A stretch of 32,000 nucleotides of DNA from Coprobacillaceae bacterium. Lineage in GTDB: Bacteria; Bacillota_I; Bacilli_A; Erysipelotrichales; Coprobacillaceae. The position numbers and the translations under genes are program-made. The stretch spans positions 1,470,001 to 1,502,000 of the forward strand of contig OY776328.1 in assembly GCA_963675515.1 (NCBI GenBank). Direction: 5' to 3'. Shown one piece after another: positions 19,327 through 30,184 of this stretch. Numbering within the stretch: position 1 is the stretch's first letter; each line of letters starts with the position of its first letter. The notes below the pieces were generated by a model. That model did not search any database and had not been told where the DNA came from. It worked only from the letters and a program-made list of their open reading frames with translations.

Positions 19327-20427
19327 ATGCTAAAAGTAAGTAATTATTTATATGGTACCCGGATGGCTTCGGTGGCCAAAAGCGAAGCGGTATTGAAGCG
19401 AATGATCGATTTGAATTATGATGTGTGCTATGTGGAGCGATCAAGTCTATGTTTTTATCCTGATGGCCTGAGGGTTCCGCTTGTTGATGATGAATATGAT
19501 GCGTTCCATGATCTTCCCGACTACAGCATCCTGGAATTCCGGGAAGGCAGGGCATATCTAAGCCATGATGCGAGTTCGCTCGACAACGCGATCTTCATAA
19601 CCAATCGGTGCAATTCCAACTGCATCATGTGTCCCACAAGCAATCATGTGCGTCGGCAAAGCGAGATTGCCGACATTGCCAATTTGCTCAAGTTGTGCCA
19701 CCAGATTCCCAGTGATGCTGCCCATCTGACGATCACCGGGGGCGAGCCTTTCCTATTGAAAGATGACCTTTTTGTCCTGCTGCAATACCTCAAGATCCAT
19801 AAGGGCAATATTGAATATCTCCTGCTGAGTAATGGTCGGGCTTTGGGGGATTACAATTATTTCACGAGATTCAAGGCCACTGTTCCGGAACATCTGCTGA
19901 TTGGCATCCCGTTGCACGGTTATGATGCAGCGACCCATGATCGTATAACCCGCAGCTCGGGCAGCATCAACCAGACTTATCAGGGTCTGAAATACCTGGC
20001 TTCGACTTGCATCAAGGTGGAATTGCGGATAGTAGTCAGTCGATTGAACATCGATTATATCGATGCCATCGCCAATCTGGTAATCAGGGAATTGGCTCAT
20101 GTCCAGGTCGTAACCTTCATCGGTTTGGAAATGCTGGGGAATGCCCGTCTAAACTTCGACCAGGTCTGGGTTGATTACCGCAGCTCCTTTGAAGCAATCA
20201 CAGGAGCCATCGACAACTTGATCGCTTCAGGCATCAATGTCGTTATCTACAATTATCCCTTGTGTTGCGTCCCGGAAAAGTATTGGTCGATTTGCCATCG
20301 CAGCATTTCGCCCGAGAAGGTGCGCCACTTGGATGAATGTCTCACATGCACTAAAAAGGACTACTGCGGAGGGATGTTTATGGGAACCTACAGACTGATG
20401 GAAGGAAAGGTAAAGGCAATAAGATGA
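19327..20427 (+). CDS. hxsC: Radical SAM protein, HxsC-type maturase
   Basis: ITNRCNSNCIMCP (CxxxCxxC), ITGGEPF, and a C-terminal Cys cluster CCVPEKYWSIC...CLTCTKKDYCGG. There is a 95-aa N-terminal extension before the cluster. The start lies 1 nt after the upstream stop. The C-versus-B assignment follows gene order and size, from memory. Confidence 0.75.
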   Translation: MLKVSNYLYGTRMASVAKSEAVLKRMIDLNYDVCYVERSSLCFYPDGLRVPLVDDEYDAFHDLPDYSILEFREGRAYLSHDASSLDNAIFITNRCNSNCIMCPTSNHVRRQSEIADIANLLKLCHQIPSDAAHLTITGGEPFLLKDDLFVLLQYLKIHKGNIEYLLLSNGRALGDYNYFTRFKATVPEHLLIGIPLHGYDAATHDRITRSSGSINQTYQGLKYLASTCIKVELRIVVSRLNIDYIDAIANLVIRELAHVQVVTFIGLEMLGNARLNFDQVWVDYRSSFEAITGAIDNLIASGINVVIYNYPLCCVPEKYWSICHRSISPEKVRHLDECLTCTKKDYCGGMFMGTYRLMEGKVKAIR

Positions 20428-21809
20428 TCGCACCATTCAATTTCAAGCAATTTGGCAACAAGATAATCATGACCAATGACCTGGGCCGTTATATGTTTGT
20501 CGAAAAGAAAGAATTCCAGGACTTGCTAAATGACAGGATGGATACCGGATCACAGTTGTACCGGGAACTTGAAGACAACTTCTTCGTATTCAACAGCTCC
20601 ATGGAGTATTTTGTGGAACGGATGAAACCCGAGCTGCGGACTGCCAAGAGCTATCTGTTTACAGCCACCAGCCTCCATATCTTTGTAGTCACCAACTACT
20701 GCAACTCCAATTGCGTCTATTGCCAGGCCAACAGCAATTGTTCCAATTCCAAGAAGGTTATGGACAGGGACATCGCCCGCAAGGCCGTTGACTTCGCCCT
20801 GCAGTCGCCTCAAAAACAGCTTACCTTTGAATTCCAGGGTGGGGAACCCTTAAGCAATTTCCCCATCATCAAGGAGATAGTGGAATATGCTTCCTCAAGG
20901 AAAAAAGACAAAGTCATCGCTTATACGATAGTATCCAACTTGTCGCTGCTCAATCAGGAGATGGTTGATTTTTTCAAGGAACATTGCATCTCGATTTCCA
21001 CCTCCCTGGACGGTCAGGCGGAGCTTCACAATCAAAACCGTCCCCTGGCTAACGGTGATGATTCTTTCGCCATCCAGAAAATGGCAATGGCCAGGCTCAA
21101 AGCCAACAAGATCGGTTATGGGGCCATCCAGACAACGACCCGGACAAGTCTTAAGTATGCCCGGGAGATAGTCGACCAGTATCTGGAGTTTGGTCTTTCC
21201 AATCTGTTTGTCCGGCCACTCACCCCGCTTGGCTGTGCTGCTTCAAGCTGGGATGATATCGGTTATACCGTTAAAGAATTCATTGATTTTTACAAGGACA
21301 CCATGCTGTATATTTTAAAATTGAATCAGCAGGGGACAATCATCAAGGAAGGACATGCCAGCATATTCCTGCAAAAGATAATCAACGGCTACGGTGTCAA
21401 CTACATGGAACTTCGTTCCCCTTGTGGGGCGGGTATCGGGCAGTTGGCATATTATTATGACGGCAACATCTTCACCTGCGATGAGGGCAGGATGCTCCAT
21501 GAAATGCATGACAGTTCGTTCAAGTTGGGAAATGTGGCGGATATGGATTATGACAGTCTGATGAATTCGAAATTATGCAAGACAGTCTGCAAGCACAGCA
21601 TCATCGAAAGCATTCCCAAATGCGCTGATTGTGTCTATATGCCATATTGCGGCACTTGCCCGGTAGTCAATTATGCCCTGGAGGGCGATATTATCCCCAA
21701 GTCGGTTGCCAATTACCGTTGCGAACTGTATGGCGGGATGCTCGAGACGATATTCGAACTGATCCAAAACGAAGACTACCTGAACATATTCAAGGAATGG
21801 GTGAAATGA
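20424..21809 (+). CDS. hxsB: Radical SAM/SPASM-domain protein, HxsB-type maturase
   Basis: VTNYCNSNCVYCQA, FQGGEPL, and a SPASM-like C-terminus (SPCGAG...DGNIFTC ... CADCVYMPYCGTCPV). ATGA overlap with hxsC at 20424-20427. Confidence 0.8.
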   Translation: MIAPFNFKQFGNKIIMTNDLGRYMFVEKKEFQDLLNDRMDTGSQLYRELEDNFFVFNSSMEYFVERMKPELRTAKSYLFTATSLHIFVVTNYCNSNCVYCQANSNCSNSKKVMDRDIARKAVDFALQSPQKQLTFEFQGGEPLSNFPIIKEIVEYASSRKKDKVIAYTIVSNLSLLNQEMVDFFKEHCISISTSLDGQAELHNQNRPLANGDDSFAIQKMAMARLKANKIGYGAIQTTTRTSLKYAREIVDQYLEFGLSNLFVRPLTPLGCAASSWDDIGYTVKEFIDFYKDTMLYILKLNQQGTIIKEGHASIFLQKIINGYGVNYMELRSPCGAGIGQLAYYYDGNIFTCDEGRMLHEMHDSSFKLGNVADMDYDSLMNSKLCKTVCKHSIIESIPKCADCVYMPYCGTCPVVNYALEGDIIPKSVANYRCELYGGMLETIFELIQNEDYLNIFKEWVK

Positions 21810-23699: not shown

Positions 23700-23942
23700 G
23701 ATGTTTTTGACAACTGTTCGATATTTGATTTGAATTTGTAGTTAAGATTATAAGTAATATTTGCTGATATTTAGCCATTATAGTGATATAATGTAGTTAA
23801 GAAAAGAGGCGATATTGTAGCTAGTCACATTATTTGGACACCGGTTCTTCAAATTATTTGAAGCTGATTTGTATCTTATTTTAGATGTTCTTCGAATTAT
23901 TTGGTGGGGATATTCGCTTTATTTGAATAATGATGTTTATGA

Positions 23943-23970
23943 AAAATAATCGCCGCTAGGCGATTATTTT
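23943..23970 (-). terminator. Perfect 12-bp hairpin overlapping the stop codon of the last transposon gene (potentially bidirectional)
   Basis: aaaataatcgcc-gcta-ggcgattatttt. A/T tracts flank it on both sides, and the minus-strand TAG stop lies in the loop. Confidence 0.55.
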
Positions 23971-24264
23971 CTTTTCCCATAATATCTTGATTGCTTGAGA
24001 GATCGCCTCGCTGGTAATCTGATCAGTTTCCCTTAACAGGTTGGAGCGATTCCAAAACACATCGTTGAAATACGACAATTCCAATCCTATTTTCATTAAC
24101 GGAACGCAAATCCAGTTTGTCAGTCTTGATTTCCCAATCAGTACGTTTACATGATTCCCATTGTATTTCAATGAAAACTCACACTGGCTATCGGTGATAC
24201 TGATTAACTCAAGATTATTCTGCCAGACAATTCCATCATATTCGCATTTAAATGAGATCATCAT
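23956..24264 (-). CDS. Hypothetical protein (102 aa), last gene of the transposon operon
   Basis: 4-nt overlap with the ATPase gene stop. No recognisable motif. Confidence 0.45.
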   Translation of the reverse strand: MMISFKCEYDGIVWQNNLELISITDSQCEFSLKYNGNHVNVLIGKSRLTNWICVPLMKIGLELSYFNDVFWNRSNLLRETDQITSEAISQAIKILWEKKIIA

Positions 24265-25064
24265 ATATTGACCTCGTTAATTGTCTGCAGCGCAATATCG
24301 CTATCGATAACTTCGACACCTTTTATTGCACCGATAAACATCGCCCGGTCACATATCCTGTCGATTTCTCGGCACACACCGTTGGCGCCATTGATTATTG
24401 CTTCCAATGCGTTGTTGTCGAATACTTCCTGGATTGTCTTGGCCAGGAGCAACTTGTCCTTGATGTATGCATGTCCTTCCAGCTTATCTAATTGACCGAT
24501 ACTGTAGTTGACAATGATTCTTTGCGTTAATGAGTCATGAGCCCCAAACCGTAAATGTCGAATTATCGAAGGTAGACCAACCATCAAAATTACCGCATGG
24601 TTCTTGGAATCCATATCGAAGTTAAATATCATCTTTAAATCATTGAGTATCGCCGTACTCATATGGTTACACTCATCAAAGATGAATACCGGAGTGATCC
24701 GCTTTTCATAAACCAATTGGTAAATGGCGGTCTGGATATCCTTGAACAAGTCGTTTTTCCGATATCGAGGAATCAAATCAAGGGAATCCGCTAGTTGCAT
24801 ATAGAACTCCTTGACCGATAAAGTCGACATGGACAGGTAAATTATCTTGTAAGTGACCTTGGGCAGGTTGCTTACGTAGTTCCTGATCATGGTTGTCTTG
24901 CCACGTCCTGGTTCCCCAAGAATCATCCCGAATCCCTTTATTTCAAACAAACTGTCGAGCCTTATTTTCAGCTCTTTGTATTCCTTCGTTTCGATAAAAT
25001 TATTCTTATTGTTTTTAATGAATGGGTTGAACTCTAACCCATATCTGGTCCAGTATTTTTCCAT
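24261..25064 (-). CDS. AAA+ ATPase, TniB/ExeA/Tn552-p271-like transposition helper
   Basis: YWTRYGLEFNPF (ExeA-like N-terminus), Walker A GEPGRGKTT, Walker B PVFIFDECNHM. 267 aa, abutting the transposase gene with no gap. Confidence 0.85.
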   Translation of the reverse strand: MEKYWTRYGLEFNPFIKNNKNNFIETKEYKELKIRLDSLFEIKGFGMILGEPGRGKTTMIRNYVSNLPKVTYKIIYLSMSTLSVKEFYMQLADSLDLIPRYRKNDLFKDIQTAIYQLVYEKRITPVFIFDECNHMSTAILNDLKMIFNFDMDSKNHAVILMVGLPSIIRHLRFGAHDSLTQRIIVNYSIGQLDKLEGHAYIKDKLLLAKTIQEVFDNNALEAIINGANGVCREIDRICDRAMFIGAIKGVEVIDSDIALQTINEVNI

Positions 25065-26312
25065 CTAATCTTCTCCTGCGCATAACTTTGGTTTCACTCT
25101 AACTGCTGTTGCATTCGCATGTTTATCCAATAATTTGATTGGTTCTAATTCTCCTGTGTGTTTATTAACTACATAAACCTGGGACAAATCTGGAGCATAT
25201 CTAAAAACATGGCGCTCATTTGAATATATGTACTCAATTTCGTATTCTTTGTTTTCAATCTTGACCACCGAATCCACACTGACCTTTCTTTCCACTTCAA
25301 ACAGGAAGGTGTTATCGATGGACTCGTCGTTCAATCGCTTGATCAGGTTGCTTTCATGATAGAACCTTTCGCTAGGGGTCAAGCCATTCAGTGAAGAATG
25401 GACCCTTGTATTGTATTTGTGAATAAATTTGTTTAGATCGGTATTCAATTTCTCTAAATCATTGGTATAGTCAATCACATTTAATTGAGCAAAAAACTGT
25501 TTTTTTACAGTTGAGAAAAAGCGCTCAATCTTCGCCTTTCCAGTTGGTTCGAACGCTTTACAATAGCTAATTGTAGAATTTATTCTTGCGGCAGTCATCT
25601 GAATCTGGGAACTCTTATAGTTCGAACCATTATCAAACCGGAACATTTCTGGGACACCATACTTGGTAACTGCGCTTTTCATGGCATCCATTAGATTCAC
25701 CGTATTATCATTAAGATATATCCCCATATGGACTATCATTCTTGAAGCATCGTCAATCAAGGCAATCATATATGTCCGGCGCTTTTTACCGTTGATGTAA
25801 ATATATGGCCCAACTGAACTGTCGCCAGCCCACATCGAATTGATATGGCGGGCTTCATAACGCCTCATGTCCTTCTTGTTTGAAATACGCAGCTCAGCTT
25901 TGATTTCATTAACACAACGGTTGACTGTCGATAGGGAAACATCAGTCTTCTTTATTAATCCATCTTCAATCAGTTTTTCATAGATTACAGTTGCCGGCAA
26001 CCTAGGATAGGTTGTCTTATAGTGCTTTATGACCTCAATGACGTCGTCATCGAGTCTTCGCGATCTCCCGGCATCACTTCTCCCTTGTGGAATCAGGCCA
26101 TCAAATCCTTTAGTCTCATAAGCCTTGATCCATCTTCGGATGGTTGTATCGGACACGGTGAAATCACTACTGTCAAAATCCTTATAAATCTTTTTGGTTG
26201 CCTGCTCGATAGCCTGGGATTTTGTCCAAGATTGATCATAATTTCCGGTTATTATGTCATGAATTATCCTATGGCGCAATAAAGTAACAAATTCCTGTTC
26301 TTTTCTATTCAT
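25065..26312 (-). CDS. DDE transposase (rve/Mu-transposase-like; TnsB/TniA/Tn552-p480 class)
   Basis: Triad context WAGDSS, FDNGSNY and GKAKIERFF, with an N-terminal HTH region. The ORF opens at 26354, but GGGAGG plus 6 nt favours the ATG at 26312 (MNRKEQEF). Confidence 0.85.
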   Translation of the reverse strand: MNRKEQEFVTLLRHRIIHDIITGNYDQSWTKSQAIEQATKKIYKDFDSSDFTVSDTTIRRWIKAYETKGFDGLIPQGRSDAGRSRRLDDDVIEVIKHYKTTYPRLPATVIYEKLIEDGLIKKTDVSLSTVNRCVNEIKAELRISNKKDMRRYEARHINSMWAGDSSVGPYIYINGKKRRTYMIALIDDASRMIVHMGIYLNDNTVNLMDAMKSAVTKYGVPEMFRFDNGSNYKSSQIQMTAARINSTISYCKAFEPTGKAKIERFFSTVKKQFFAQLNVIDYTNDLEKLNTDLNKFIHKYNTRVHSSLNGLTPSERFYHESNLIKRLNDESIDNTFLFEVERKVSVDSVVKIENKEYEIEYIYSNERHVFRYAPDLSQVYVVNKHTGELEPIKLLDKHANATAVRVKPKLCAGED

Positions 26313-26360
26313 ATTGTTCCTCCCATCAGTACTATATAGGAGTTGATTGAACAAGTTAAC

Positions 26361-26915
26361 TTAGGCTATGTGGTTGAAGGTATATAGGATATTTGGGGTC
26401 ATTTTTACCTGCATGAACTGCACCAAATAATTTGAAAAACAGGAAATCACCAGGGTATTGAGATTACCCAAAGAGATGCGAAAAGTATTTAACCTCTCTT
26501 GCCAATGGTTTCGATATCTAAGTATGACATTATAAATCTCGCATTCACAAATCTCAGGATGACAATCAAGAATTAGTTTCAGACCGTTTTTACTACTTTG
26601 CTTTCTAATTATTTCAACCTGAACAGCCAATGGGATACTGGTATATGGAACGAGGTCGGAAAGTAAAATGGCATGGGTAACCCCACAATCCTTACATTTC
26701 AAGCGCATTATCCGCAACCTAAAAATTCCAAAAGGTAGCTTGACCTTTCGGAAGTAATAGCCATGAATGATGTGATTGCCGCCGCATGAGTTGACACAAC
26801 CGATGGAGTAACGGTTAATATCATTTACAGCTGCATCGTAAAAATCCTGTAGCTTTGATTCAGAATCGATTTCGAGTAATTTACTCTTGATTTTATCATT
26901 GTGATAAGTTATCAT
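26361..26915 (-). CDS. Cys-rich (putative zinc-binding) protein, first gene of the transposon operon
   Basis: 184 aa. GCVNSCGGNH ... KCKDCGVTH gives a CxxxC...CxxC arrangement. Family not recognised with certainty. Confidence 0.5.
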   Translation of the reverse strand: MITYHNDKIKSKLLEIDSESKLQDFYDAAVNDINRYSIGCVNSCGGNHIIHGYYFRKVKLPFGIFRLRIMRLKCKDCGVTHAILLSDLVPYTSIPLAVQVEIIRKQSSKNGLKLILDCHPEICECEIYNVILRYRNHWQERLNTFRISLGNLNTLVISCFSNYLVQFMQVKMTPNILYTFNHIA

Positions 26916-27008
26916 AATTTTGTTTTATGGGGAATGAGAGAAGCTACTTGGCGGTGGGGTCTCTCATTTTTCTTTCTATGGAATATTTATCAACAAGATA
27001 TCAAAAAA

Positions 27009-27067
27009 AGAGGTCGGGTTCAACTAATTTGAAGAAAAAACATTCAAATTAGTTGGCAACGGCCTCT
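27009..27067. repeat. Long imperfect inverted repeat at the transposon right end
   Basis: agaggtcgggttcaactaatttgaa (27009-27033), 9-nt spacer, ttcaaattagttggcaacggcctct (27043-27067). The arms contain the subterminal repeat motif in opposite orientations. An A7 run lies just upstream. Confidence 0.8.
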
Positions 27068-27128
27068 ATTTAATTTGCACAAAAACCTAGAAATATTTAC
27101 CATATAAATCGACTAGCTACACGATATT

Positions 27129-28799
27129 ATGTTTGTCAGAGCTGTTAAGAACAATAAAGGTAAAGATAATACCTATTTTTGTGCACTTGTTGAGTCTTAT
27201 CGTGAAAATGGTGTATCTAAACACCGCGTTCTTATTAATTTCGGTCTTGTAGACGGAGAAAGTGTTCCTTTCCTCAAAGCGGCTTTCGCTAAAAAGAAAC
27301 CAAGGTTGGTATACGATGATGAATAATGTAGTTAAGACTAATAAGATGACAGATTTCTTCAATTCTTTCGCGGATGTCTTGTCTTCTGACATCACTCGTA
27401 ATTTATCTAGGAACTTTAGTTCTAATTTTACTCGCAATCGGACTATGACTTTCAGGGATGTAATTCTCTACTTTGTTTTTAGAAATTCTAAGGACACTAA
27501 CACGGACTTGACCAAGTATTTCTGCTCCACTGACCGCTTGGAAAAAAGGATCACCAAGCAAGCTCTTAACGTCGATATCAAAAAACTCAATCCATCAGTA
27601 TTCAGATATTTATTCAAAGAGTTTGCCAAGGAGTTCTATCAAACAAGCTGCCTAAGACATATAAAGGGTATACGCTTTTAGCTGAAGATGGGACCTTTCT
27701 AGAAATTCCCTATAGCATCCACAATATTTATAACTTCGGCTTTTGGAAAAACCAGTACGTCAAAGATATTTTCGATGTTAAGAAAGTTCTGTCCAAATCA
27801 GCTGGACTATATGACGTCACCAACGGCATCTTTTTGGATTTCATGATGAGACCTGCCCCTTACTCAGAAATTCCACTTGCCTTCCAACACCTTTATAGTT
27901 GTGGGGATCTGTTGGCTGGCAAGAAAGTGATTTATCTTGCTGATCGCTACTATGGCTCAGTCGAGCTTATCAGTCATCTTGAGCACTTAGGATTTGATTA
28001 TTGCATCCGTGCCAAATCCAACTTCTTTAAAAAGCAAGTCAGTGAAATGACTTCAAATGATGAGTGGATCGAGGTAGATGTTGACAGGCTATGGCGGAAA
28101 AGATTCCGGTTCTCTGATGAAGCCCGTAAAATCAGAGAAGATAACCCCAAAGTGAAGATAAGAGTCGTAAAATTTACTTATGCATACAGTAATAAATTCG
28201 GGGAGTCCATTGAATCAGATATAACATACTTTACCAGTTTGTCAAAAGAAGAGTTCAGCCACGAGGATATCATCGAGCTCTATTCAAAGCGTTGGAATAT
28301 TGAGGTGGCATATAAAACGCTAAAAACCGATATGGAACTGGAACGACACGTTAGCGAATCCGACACCGTATCCCAATGCTGCATCTATGGCAAAATCGTG
28401 CTTTACAATATCTTGGGAGTGATCAGGAAAGAAATCGACAGGTATCTTAGCAGGCACCCGGGCAAGCACCGCCGCCGGCCTAATCGTGAAGAAACCTCCG
28501 ATAAAAATGATGAAGATAATATCCAGTACCAGGTCAACATCAAACAACTACATAATCTGCTGATGGAGAACAACCTGCTGTATCCGTTTTACAGTCATAA
28601 GAAAACACTGATGCGAAAAAGGATTAAGCAAATAGTTGCCGTAGCCCAAACAATAAAAGTGCCCGTCCGCAAGAACAGGCACAGTCAACGTTGGGGCAGA
28701 GTAGTTCCTAGTGGATTCTACTACCGATTCTCGCTTGATGGGCGAAACTATCCAAAAATTCAAACCATCAAAGGCGTCATGAGAACAGTTGCCCCGTAG
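27129..28799 (+). pseudogene. IS1634/IS4-family transposase, frameshifted
   Basis: N-terminus MFVRAVKNNKGKDNTYFCALVESYRENGVSKHRVLINFG is IS1634-like. The pieces lie in frames 3/1/3. The frame break at about 27655-27681 falls inside YKGYTLLAEDGTFLEIP (first catalytic D). Other motifs are YLADRYYGS (second D) and YSKRWNIEVAYKTLK (Y-2-R-3-E-6-K). Confidence 0.75.
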
Positions 28800-29075
28800 T
28801 CAAGAATACACTATCATTATAACATGAATATCGCAATTTTAAAAAAACGCTAAAATTCTATGGGGGATTATGCGCTTTTTTTCATGTGAAGATTTAAACT
28901 AAACTTGAATTAAGCGTCAGAGATTTATATTTAAGCTGCATATAGATATAAAAAGAGCCAACTAGGAAAAAGGTCCTAAAGTTGACTCCATTGGGGGAGT
29001 GGATAGGTTACAATAAATTAGACAAGATTATAAGGACATGATAAAATCTTGTTAAATTTGTGGAGGATATTCAAA

Positions 29076-29369
29076 ATGACAAAACGCAGACCTAAACGTA
29101 CTTACACCGATGAATTCAGAATCAAAATGGTTCAACTTTACAACAATGGGAAACCCAGAGCGGAAATAATCCGTGAATACGATTTGACAGCTTCAGCGTT
29201 CAATAAATGGGTTAAACGCTTCAATGACACGGGTTCGTTTACTGAAGCCGACAATCGATCAGATCATGACAAGGCGCTTATCAAGCTCCAAAAAGAAAAC
29301 GAACGACTGAAGATGGAAAATGATATTTTAAAGCAAGCGGCGCTGATAATGGGACGAAAAGACAAGTAA
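29076..29369 (+). CDS. IS3-family transposase OrfA (HTH)
   Basis: MTKRRPKRTYTDEFRIKMVQLYNNGKPRAEIIREYDL..., with a leucine-zipper-like C-terminus LQKENERLKMENDILKQA. GGAGG lies 9 nt upstream of the ATG at 29076. Confidence 0.85.
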   Translation: MTKRRPKRTYTDEFRIKMVQLYNNGKPRAEIIREYDLTASAFNKWVKRFNDTGSFTEADNRSDHDKALIKLQKENERLKMENDILKQAALIMGRKDK

Positions 29370-29404
29370 TCTTTGCAAATCAACACAAATACTCTATCAG
29401 CGCT

Positions 29405-30184
29405 ATGTGCAAAGTCTTGAAAATCTCTCGGGCAACTCTCTACTACAAACCCAAAGGGCGTAAAGTGGATTCGAAGCTTGAAGATGAAGTAATAAAATCA
29501 TTCAAAAACAGCAAGAAGAATTATGGAACACGCAAGATAAAAGATGACCTGGATGATTTGAACATGGTTGCCAGCAGAAGAAAAATTGCTCAAATCATGG
29601 ACAAATACGGCTTGATCAGTAAATACACCATCAAGCAAAGACCAAAGCATTATGGCAAAGTAAATAATGACGATATTGAAAATCTGATCAATAGAAAATT
29701 CCAAGCAGAGCGGCCAATGCAATATTTAACCAGCGACTTGACCTACATCAAGGTGGCTGGAAAATGGAACTATATTTGTCTGATAATAGATTTATACAAT
29801 CGTGAAATCGTTGGTAAATCTAGTGGTCAAAACAAAGACGCCAACTTGGTTATTAAGGCATTAAACGATATAAAAAGTGATTTAAGTGATGTCGAAGTAT
29901 TTCATTCAGACCGAGGCTCAGAGTTCAAAAACGAGATGATTGATAGGATATTGGCATTGAATGGAATCAAGAGATCGTTGAGTGCAAAAGGTAAACCGAT
30001 TGATAACGCAGTATCAGAATCAATGTACAAAATACTCAAAACAGAATTCGCATTCAATCGACAATTCCGCAGTATCGACGAATTGTCATTGGAACTGTAT
30101 GATTATGTCAACTGGTTCAACAACAAAAGGAAGCATGGGAGCCTTAATTACAAAACACCCGTACAATACAGGTTGTCCTTATAA
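29405..30184 (+). CDS. IS3-family transposase OrfB (rve DDE domain), expressed by -1 frameshift from OrfA
   Basis: OrfB lies in the -1 frame relative to OrfA and is open from 29324, giving a 46-nt overlap window. Motifs: YLTSDLTYI, FHSDRGSEF, DNAVSESMYKILKTE and NNKRKHGSLNYKTP. Confidence 0.85.
   Translation: MCKVLKISRATLYYKPKGRKVDSKLEDEVIKSFKNSKKNYGTRKIKDDLDDLNMVASRRKIAQIMDKYGLISKYTIKQRPKHYGKVNNDDIENLINRKFQAERPMQYLTSDLTYIKVAGKWNYICLIIDLYNREIVGKSSGQNKDANLVIKALNDIKSDLSDVEVFHSDRGSEFKNEMIDRILALNGIKRSLSAKGKPIDNAVSESMYKILKTEFAFNRQFRSIDELSLELYDYVNWFNNKRKHGSLNYKTPVQYRLSL

Follow-up and report, generated by a model that had tools for sequence, protein, structure and literature searches.

A compact, cargo-free transposon with a DDE transposase, an AAA+ helper ATPase and a DUF6431 protein inserted before a decaying IS4-family gene

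Results

Boundaries and gene content of the element

A 32,000-nucleotide stretch of the genome of a Coprobacillaceae bacterium (contig OY776328.1, positions 1,470,001 to 1,502,000; the whole stretch is referred to as the window) carries a small transposon next to a gene of the IS4 family of insertion sequences (IS). The element proper occupies window positions 23816-27121 (3306 bp) and is bounded by an exact 11-bp terminal inverted repeat, with TGTAGCTAGTC at 23816-23826 and its reverse complement at 27111-27121. In the whole window these are the only matches to TGTAGCTAGTC even when one mismatch is allowed (0.15 expected); carried beyond the 11 bp, the inverted repeat pairs 18 of 22 bases. 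Immediately outside both ends lies CGATAT, a perfect 6-bp duplication. The original prediction for this DNA had claimed exact ends and a 6-bp duplication, and the TGTAGCTAGTC repeat with its CGATAT flanks bears this out; the coordinates given at that time (23810-27127) take in both copies of the duplication and are corrected here to those of the element proper.

Four co-oriented genes on the minus strand together fill the element (Table 1). The open reading frames (ORFs) of 184, 415, 267 and 102 amino acids (aa) exist as had been described, and no further ORFs are present in the element. Searches of the four proteins in Pfam and NCBIfam returned no resolvase, TnsA, TniQ or resistance-gene domain, in agreement with the earlier statement that the element has neither a resolvase nor a resistance gene. 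The element is a discrete, compact, cargo-free and apparently intact transposon.

Table 1. Coordinates of the element, its ends and its target in the window, with Tn6049 added from plasmid pMOL30
Feature	Position	Strand	Remarks
Promoter-like site and Shine-Dalgarno of the interrupted gene	23764..23809	+	now separated from the ATG at 27129
Target-site duplication, copy 1 (CGATAT)	23810..23815	none	read from sequence; same as 27122-27127
RE, end downstream of the genes	23816..23955	-	terminal TGTAGCTAGTC and four direct-repeat sites like TTCAAATTATTTGR
DUF6618 protein, 102 aa	23956..24264	-	Pfam PF20323, 31.6 bits; start overlaps ATPase stop (ATGA)
AAA+ helper ATPase, 267 aa, AAA_22 / ExeA-GspA-like	24261..25064	-	Pfam AAA_22, 68.5 bits
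DDE transposase, 415 aa from ATG	25065..26312	-	N-terminal helix-turn-helix (HTH) domains, rve core, C-terminal beta-barrel region
DUF6431 Cys-rich protein, 184 aa, first gene of the operon	26361..26915	-	Pfam PF20020, 30.1 bits
LE, end upstream of the genes	26916..27121	-	terminal TGTAGCTAGTC, diverged second site, inverted site pair
Target-site duplication, copy 2 (CGATAT)	27122..27127	none	read from sequence
Interrupted IS4-family transposase gene	27129..28799	+	three ORFs of 65, 139 and 321 aa; frames 0, +1, 0
Tn6049 on pMOL30	28152-31668 of L035		181-aa Cys-rich 'transposase', 479-aa 'IS481 family transposase', 277-aa AAA_22 ATPase, 71-aa hypothetical

Transposase and helper ATPase

The transposase matches the Pfam families rve, HTH_32/HTH_29 and rve_3, and its catalytic residues D164, D227 and E263 are invariant in a 24-sequence alignment. 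The best NCBIfam match is the IS481 model (171.6 bits, residues 63-331), which falls below the cutoff of 224, as the IS21 transposase model does (66.5 bits, cutoff 160); PHROG 310 (transposase) gives 173 bits. The family profile made from the 24 sequences reaches TnsB of the type V-K CRISPR-associated transposon (CAST; 7svw) at 9e-13, over catalytic core and beta-barrel, and IstA of IS21 (8q4d) at 1e-8, again with the beta-barrel included. Mu-transpos_C is matched by several homologues. More than 3000 homologues were found, the top 120 of which are all about 414 aa long, and their names are generic.

The transposase stop abuts the start of the ATPase gene. Walker A (GEPGRGKTT) and Walker B (IFDE) of the ATPase are both invariant, similarity to ExeA-like ATPases extends over the full length (NCBIfam), and PHROG 296 ('DNA transposition protein') scores 72.8 bits; the Pfam domain IstB_IS21 gave no match. 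None of the full copies that were examined, in hosts ranging from Clostridia to Streptomyces and Burkholderia, lacks the ATPase, whose gene usually overlaps or is coupled to that of the transposase. These similarities support the placement of the predicted transposase/ATPase pair in the Mu/Tn552/Tn7/IS21 class. The class named originally, Mu/Tn552/Tn7, holds on the matches to the PHROG families, TnsB, IstA and the p480 protein of Tn552, with Tn7 the most distant of the three since TnsA is absent.

The DUF6431 and DUF6618 proteins

In the DUF6431 protein a zinc-ribbon-like C-x2-C...H...C-x2-C region is followed by a helical region, and residues C40, H51, G52, R56, R71, C74, C77, T80, L84, P90 and W138 are invariant. 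The gene precedes that of the transposase in Clostridium butyricum, C. tagluense, Geobacillus, Sporosarcina (where it is unannotated), Streptomyces and Burkholderia. Many homologues gave weak HTH matches, and a weak match to the N-terminus of ISH6 transposases was also obtained. The AlphaFold2 model is of moderate confidence (pLDDT 69.8), and no solved relative was found in the PDB by Foldseek (E < 0.05) or by sequence profile; TniQ was absent. On the Sporosarcina plasmid pSporoP37, the gene upstream of the transposase is missing from the public annotation; it is a 177-aa ORF (L027 2833-3366) in which the Cys/His pattern of DUF6431 is present.

The DUF6618 family is small, with only 88 clusters at 50% identity among 1.8 billion representatives. 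Its AlphaFold2 model (pLDDT 96.9) is a six-stranded sheet with two helices, for which Foldseek (E < 0.05) found no significant structural neighbour in PDB or BFVD. DUF6618 is absent from the C. butyricum and Geobacillus copies, and in Sporosarcina, Burkholderia and Tn6049 its position is occupied by unrelated small ORFs. For the small ORFs after the ATPase gene in Sporosarcina, Burkholderia and Streptomyces, homology to DUF6618 was considered and rejected. The two small ORFs, treated alike in the original prediction, are not equivalent on this comparison: DUF6431 is a core gene conserved across phyla and DUF6618 a clade-specific accessory.

Architecture of the two ends

Motif TTCRAATTATTTG, with up to two mismatches, has 22 matches in the window against 7.8 expected, and none of 100 shuffles reached 22; half of the matches (11/22), among them all three exact ones, lie within the element. 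In RE, sites like TTCAAATTATTTGR are found at about 23824, 23848, 23891 and 23913. They comprise the terminal site followed by three more direct copies, and their distances from the tip are about 9, 31, 73 and 96 nt. When RE was aligned with three relatives (loci L014, L020 and L009), the four sites of ~13 bp were kept in position and the spacers were diverged. The architecture of LE is also kept in L020 and L009. Both ends carry the conserved site of 13-14 bp in asymmetric arrays, and such asymmetric multi-site ends fit the Mu/Tn7/Tn552/IS21 pattern. Several binding-site-like repeats had been claimed for each end, and their conserved positions amid diverged spacers bear the claim out; the motif positions first listed were 2-4 bases off.

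A simple terminator scanner missed two hairpins that were revealed by folding. One is the operon terminator hairpin on the RE side, at 23944-23972 (-15.9 kcal/mol, z -5.95). The other is formed by the inverted site pair of LE, a palindrome at 27005-27071 with 29-nt arms that are 79% complementary. On the gene strand it folds into a hairpin of -23.8 kcal/mol (z -7.07) followed by U7, and it is a strong inward-facing terminator hairpin too. A palindrome in this arm had been noticed originally; its position is corrected here, and its second nature as a terminator hairpin is added. It may be binding site and terminator both. After the palindrome on the gene strand comes a promoter-like TTGATA/AAAAAT at 26993-26966, and then, in the 5' leader of the DUF6431 gene, a hairpin of the 5'-untranslated region at about 26934-26968 (minus strand; -10.6 kcal/mol, z -4.79). 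The stem of this hairpin, AAUGAGAGA...UCUCUCAUU, is identical in L009 (about 893-927), a relative of ~69% DNA identity; the loop is different.

An exact copy of the end motif TTCAAATTATTTG also lies inside the element, at 26424-26436 (minus strand) and thus ~110 bp before the transposase gene starts. L020 and L009, which share only ~69% DNA identity, have it without any change (element position 688), and it also codes for FSNYL, a conserved stretch of DUF6431. This conservation could be due either to coding constraint or to a function of the internal copy in transposase binding or regulation.

Relatives at unrelated sites

A complete 2.6-Mb contig in ENA (ERZ21878193 ctg13481l; L020-L025) holds six full four-gene copies and one truncated copy at unrelated sites. 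All have the termini TGTAGCTAGCCA...GACTAGCTACA and the same TGTAGCTAG ends as the window element. Five of the full copies are flanked by a 6-bp duplication, and the sixth by one of 5 bp. In L021 (1060-3562), a second, inverted copy that has lost its DUF6431 end is seen ~1.3 kb from a full copy. An Erysipelotrichaceae metagenome-assembled genome contains a truncated remnant, 83% identical, with the same 22-nt tip and a different flank, and elements of ~69% identity occur at two further sites. C. butyricum GCA_013149575.1 has six copies of a three-gene version without DUF6618, with duplications that, where readable, measure 6 bp, or 7 bp in a single copy. The copy on the Sporosarcina plasmid is bounded by a TGTAACCGAGCAC inverted repeat and has duplicated 7 bp. 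DUF6431 is mentioned in two papers, one of them a 2026 preprint that reports the DUF6431/DDE/AAA cassette in 15 copies in Clostridium sp. JS66, with a deletion bracketed by two of these copies. Transposase identity between the window element and its DUF6431-cassette relatives is ~50% for C. butyricum and 30-38% for the C. tagluense, Geobacillus and Sporosarcina plasmids. The features of this family are DUF6431, an rve transposase of ~415 aa, an AAA_22 ATPase of ~267 aa, inverted repeats, multiple copies and 6-7-bp duplications, and they were found here.

A degenerate pattern of the ends retrieved one truncated remnant from GTDB genomes. Five further matches to the pattern in metagenome contigs were treated as chance, as none of them aligns with the element by blastn. 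Blastn of the element DNA against plasmids gave no match.

These relatives, which occur in multiple copies at unrelated sites, show that the family is mobile. The 3.3 kb does not belong to the IS4-like element, since four-gene copies occur elsewhere without an IS4-like neighbour. Other copies keep the same ends and a duplication, and the 6-bp duplication, noted originally at this element, recurs in the relatives.

Two of the C. butyricum copies (JABFUH010000001.1; L001 and L002, at about 0.42 and 1.07 Mb) are inverted with respect to each other and have swapped 6-bp flanks, ATTGAC...CGTTAT in one and CGTTAT...ATTGAC in the other. This is the footprint of a ~650-kb inversion, by recombination between copies or by intramolecular replicative transposition. 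The pathway is left undecided by the swapped flanks, because replicative inversion and later homologous recombination both fit.

The insertion target and its neighbourhood

The insertion point lies between AAAGAGG, a Shine-Dalgarno sequence, and the ATG at 27129. When the element and one CGATAT copy are removed, AAAGAGGCGATATTATG is obtained, and the restoration of a Shine-Dalgarno-ATG arrangement is thereby borne out. A promoter-like CTGATA-17-TATAAT at 23764-23792, upstream of the restored site, supports a real gene start. NCBIfam IS4_1 and Pfam DDE_Tnp_1 match the 139-aa and 321-aa ORFs of the target, and the three ORFs fit a single gene of about 556 codons that two frameshifts have disrupted. 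The target is an IS4-family (DDE_Tnp_1) pseudogene, which was probably decaying already at insertion. The original prediction was right in taking the target for a transposase gene; the 'IS1634-like' label that it gave to the 65-aa ORF has no NCBIfam or Pfam support, and this ORF matches no family in either collection even at E 10. Exact-protein look-ups of the 65-aa and 321-aa ORFs returned nothing, nor did tblastn of the 65-aa ORF against plasmids.

The 11-mer TGTAGTTAAGA has three exact copies on the plus strand, at 23737-23747, 23792-23802 and 27327-27337, and five matches when one mismatch is allowed (0.84 expected). Two copies are upstream of the insertion, and the third is at the junction of the 65-aa ORF with the ORF after it; between the copies at 23788 and 27324 the identity extends to 15 bases, ATAATGTAGTTAAGA. 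These repeats may belong to the ends or subterminal regions of the IS4-like element, or they may point to a further nested rearrangement. After the IS4-like pseudogene comes an IS3-family element at 29049-30184, with an OrfA of 106 aa and an OrfB of 259 aa (243 bits, IS3 model); at least three different mobile elements are thus clustered in the region from 23.3 to 30.2 kb. Upstream of the cluster, a 461-aa ORF at 20424-21809 has the look of a radical-SAM/SPASM maturase, from its Cys motifs only. The GC content is about 46% over 18-23 kb and about 32% over 1-11 kb.

Discussion

Proposed mechanism

With a probability of roughly 0.85, the element is a transposon of the heteromeric kind, with a Mu/IS481-type transposase and an AAA_22 ATPase, which has inserted before a decaying IS4-family gene, has Tn6049 as its closest named relative and moves by the mechanism outlined here. 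The HTH domains of the transposase would bind the repeated sites and pair the two ends. The ATP-bound ATPase would coat or bend target DNA and would then recruit and activate the transposase through its C-terminal beta-barrel, like MuB, IstB and TnsC; such a role of the beta-barrel has been described for IstA-IstB (PMC11208146). The 3'-OH ends would then attack the target 6 bp apart. Since the element encodes neither a TnsA-like 5' nuclease nor a resolvase, it would most likely give rise to a Mu/Tn552-style branched intermediate, to be completed by host replication or repair, and any cointegrates would be resolved by homologous recombination of the host.

The hairpin and U-run inside the upstream end would block read-through from outside and so shield the operon, and the transposase sites beside the promoter may allow autoregulation. 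In the transposition machine, DUF6431 would most likely serve as a third subunit or a regulator that binds DNA. DUF6618 is probably a dispensable, clade-specific modulator, translationally coupled to the ATPase.

Several points weigh against this interpretation. The mechanistic steps beyond the insertion footprint are all drawn by analogy with Mu, IS21 and Tn7. As for the ATPase, the TniB model (PF05621) gives 20.2 bits, under its cutoff of 22.4, the best solved relative is a weak match to MuB (8xvb), and tblastn with the window ATPase did not retrieve the ATPase of Tn552. No second copy is present in the window, exact public look-ups returned no identical transposase or ATPase, and an empty site was not found among metagenome contigs with the exact 23-mer across the restored junction. 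A DNA-binding role of DUF6431 is no more than suggested by Cys/His conservation and the weak HTH and ISH6 matches, since its model is of moderate confidence and no structural neighbour was found for it. Homology of DUF6431 to the 181-aa protein of the first Tn6049 gene was not supported, with no Pfam or BLASTP match and an hhalign probability of 6%. The DUF6431 hidden Markov model scores it below shuffled controls, and what the two share is only a similar Cys pattern and the position of the gene.

The transposase itself scores equally well on the IS481 model and the Mu-like phage model, which qualifies the class label first given to it. IS481-type elements are thought to use a copy-out/paste-in route. 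With an equal IS481 score and such a route, IS481/IS3-like copy-out/paste-in is a serious alternative to the replicative Mu-like pathway.

Alternative explanations

One alternative is that the element is an IS481-family IS with passenger genes, moving by copy-out/paste-in through a circular or tandem-junction intermediate, with the ATPase as a non-essential enhancer. The IS481 equivalog model is the best NCBIfam match of the transposase, and the annotation pipeline PGAP assigns the homologues in Geobacillus and Tn6049 to the IS481 family. IS481-type elements likewise end in TGT and duplicate 6 bp (PMC6794481). However, the score of 171.6 is under the curated cutoff of 224, and ~80 extra C-terminal residues align with the TnsB/IstA beta-barrel, where homologues match Mu-transpos_C. 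The ATPase is found in every full copy examined and is usually coupled to the transposase, as would be expected of an obligate partner, and the duplications of the window and ctg13481l insertions are not NCTAGN. We therefore consider an IS481 element with passengers unlikely, and prefer the transposase/ATPase transposon set out above.

Within that preferred interpretation, a further step is conceivable on a tentative footing: that DUF6431 is the obligatory third subunit of a distinct and very abundant transposase/AAA_22 ATPase/DUF6431 machine, placed between IS481 and the Mu/Tn552/Tn7 group, with a function unlike that of any characterised accessory protein. If this were true, DUF6431 might recognise the ends in trans or license the hand-off between ATPase and transposase, in place of TniQ, TnsA or a resolvase. 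In that case exchangeable modulators of target choice or immunity would be encoded after the ATPase gene, by DUF6618 or by one of the unrelated small ORFs found in its place.

It is rather improbable that DUF6431 or DUF6618 is a dedicated target selector like TniQ/TnsD, which would steer the element into mobile elements as Tn5053 hunts res sites. The Cys-rich, zinc-ribbon-like DUF6431 is conserved with transposase and ATPase across phyla, and five of seven well-defined insertions of the four-gene subfamily, those of the window and L020-L025, are in or beside transposable elements (IS4-like, IS3, IS66, group II intron), with one of the seven in a conjugative element. But neither small protein has a TniQ match in Pfam or a structural neighbour, and the seven target sequences have no common motif beyond AT-richness. 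An enrichment in mobile DNA is expected from purifying selection alone, and the raw 5/7 count is most simply explained by selection for harmless sites. Moreover, copies in C. butyricum and Geobacillus have multiplied without DUF6618.

That the window copy is a dead relic, whose perfect ends and duplication reflect a recent final insertion, would agree with the single copy in 32 kb, the lack of identical proteins on record and the position within a cluster of decayed IS elements, but is doubtful in view of four ORFs at full length against their homologues (184, 415, 267 and 102 aa), intact catalytic and Walker residues, and perfect termini and duplication.

Significance

The main models for target choice and transposase activation are Mu, Tn7/CAST and IS21, transposons in which a DDE transposase is paired with an AAA+ ATPase, and programmable insertion tools are based on such transposons. 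The DUF6431-cassette family is as compact as IS21, extends from Clostridia to Streptomyces and Burkholderia, and is often present in many copies per genome. Such elements reshape genomes, as in the deletion in Clostridium sp. JS66 and in the gene disruption by Tn6049 in Cupriavidus. For annotation, the locus is an ordinary case of a mobile element that has inserted into another. The interest centres on the conserved DUF6431 partner, and the window element, an intact-looking Firmicute member with clean ends, would be a convenient start for a reconstituted system.

Comparison with known systems

The window element shares its gene order with the unnamed DUF6431/DDE/AAA cassettes of Clostridia, Bacilli, Actinomycetota and Burkholderiales, which are its own family; their ends are TGT/TAT, and most members lack DUF6618 or have an unrelated small ORF in its place. 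Literature searches on DUF6618, on ExeA with transposase and on IS481 with ATPase found no published description of the family, and neither a name nor an ISfinder-style description of the cassette was found, annotations being generic. The original prediction had called the family undescribed, which does not stand, as Tn6049 has the same four-gene layout and the cassette was noted in the 2026 preprint.

Tn6049 of Cupriavidus metallidurans CH34 was named in 2009-2010 and is also found on Pseudomonas aeruginosa pHS87a. It is 3.5 kb long and present in 12 copies, all with the ATPase gene gspA (Janssen et al. 2010, PMC2864759), and a 4-bp repeat has been reported for it (PMC4739549). Like the window element (3.3 kb), it has four co-oriented genes in the same order, no cargo or resolvase, TGT...ACA termini (TGTAG...CTACA in the window, TGTGCG...GCACA in Tn6049) and a short duplication. 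Its ends read TGTGCGTGAGCA/TGCTTATGCACA, and the duplications measured 6, 6, 5, 4 and 0 bp in five copies. The relationship is distant: by BLASTP the transposases are 23% identical over residues 33-406 (E 2e-22) and the ATPases 26% (E 3e-12). Tn6049 differs from the window element in its longer transposase (479 aa against 415 aa), its last ORF, which is not DUF6618, the phylum of its host and a more variable duplication length. No mechanistic study of Tn6049 was found in the searchable literature. By sequence comparison, Tn6049 is the closest named element, of the same design, and a distant sister rather than a member of the same subfamily.

Tn552 of Staphylococcus aureus is also similar, with a p480 that has HTH_32-rve and Mu-transpos_C, an AAA_22 helper ATPase and multi-site ends; p480 and the window transposase are 26% identical (E 1e-22). 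Its duplications are 6-7 bp. Unlike the window element, Tn552 has the resolvase BinL with a res site and bla cargo, and it lacks DUF6431 and DUF6618 genes. On pN315 (L033 13288-14046), the ORF that follows the Tn552 p480 is a hybrid, with an AAA_22 N-terminus (the start of p271) and a serine resolvase C-terminus; annotated only as 'recombinase family protein', it is probably a recombination product within Tn552.

With Mu-like phages the element shares TG...CA ends and several sites per end, and their A and B proteins are the best viral family matches (PHROG 310 and 296). At 3.3 kb and without phage structural genes it is not a phage; Mu also differs in its 5-bp duplications, its much larger MuA and MuB and its lack of a DUF6431 gene. 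IS21 (2-3 kb, 4-8-bp duplications) is similarly compact, with transposase, AAA+ ATPase and multi-site ends, but has two genes rather than three or four, and the window ATPase is not of the IstB/DnaC type. Tn7 and Tn5053 have in common with it a TnsB-like core, an AAA+ adaptor and asymmetric multi-site ends. Unlike Tn7, the window element has no TnsA and no TniQ/TnsD, and duplicates 6 bp instead of 5; unlike Tn5053/Tn402 (TniA, TniB, TniQ, TniR, 5-bp duplication), it has a TniB match below cutoff, no TniQ and no resolvase. IS481 elements are single-gene IS of 1-1.5 kb, unlike the four genes and 3.3 kb found here, and the IS481 score is under cutoff, although PGAP gives the Geobacillus and Tn6049 homologues this name. 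The window element is thus a new, distant Firmicute member of a known, uncharacterised kind, the Tn6049-like Mu/IS481-class transposons with a helper ATPase.

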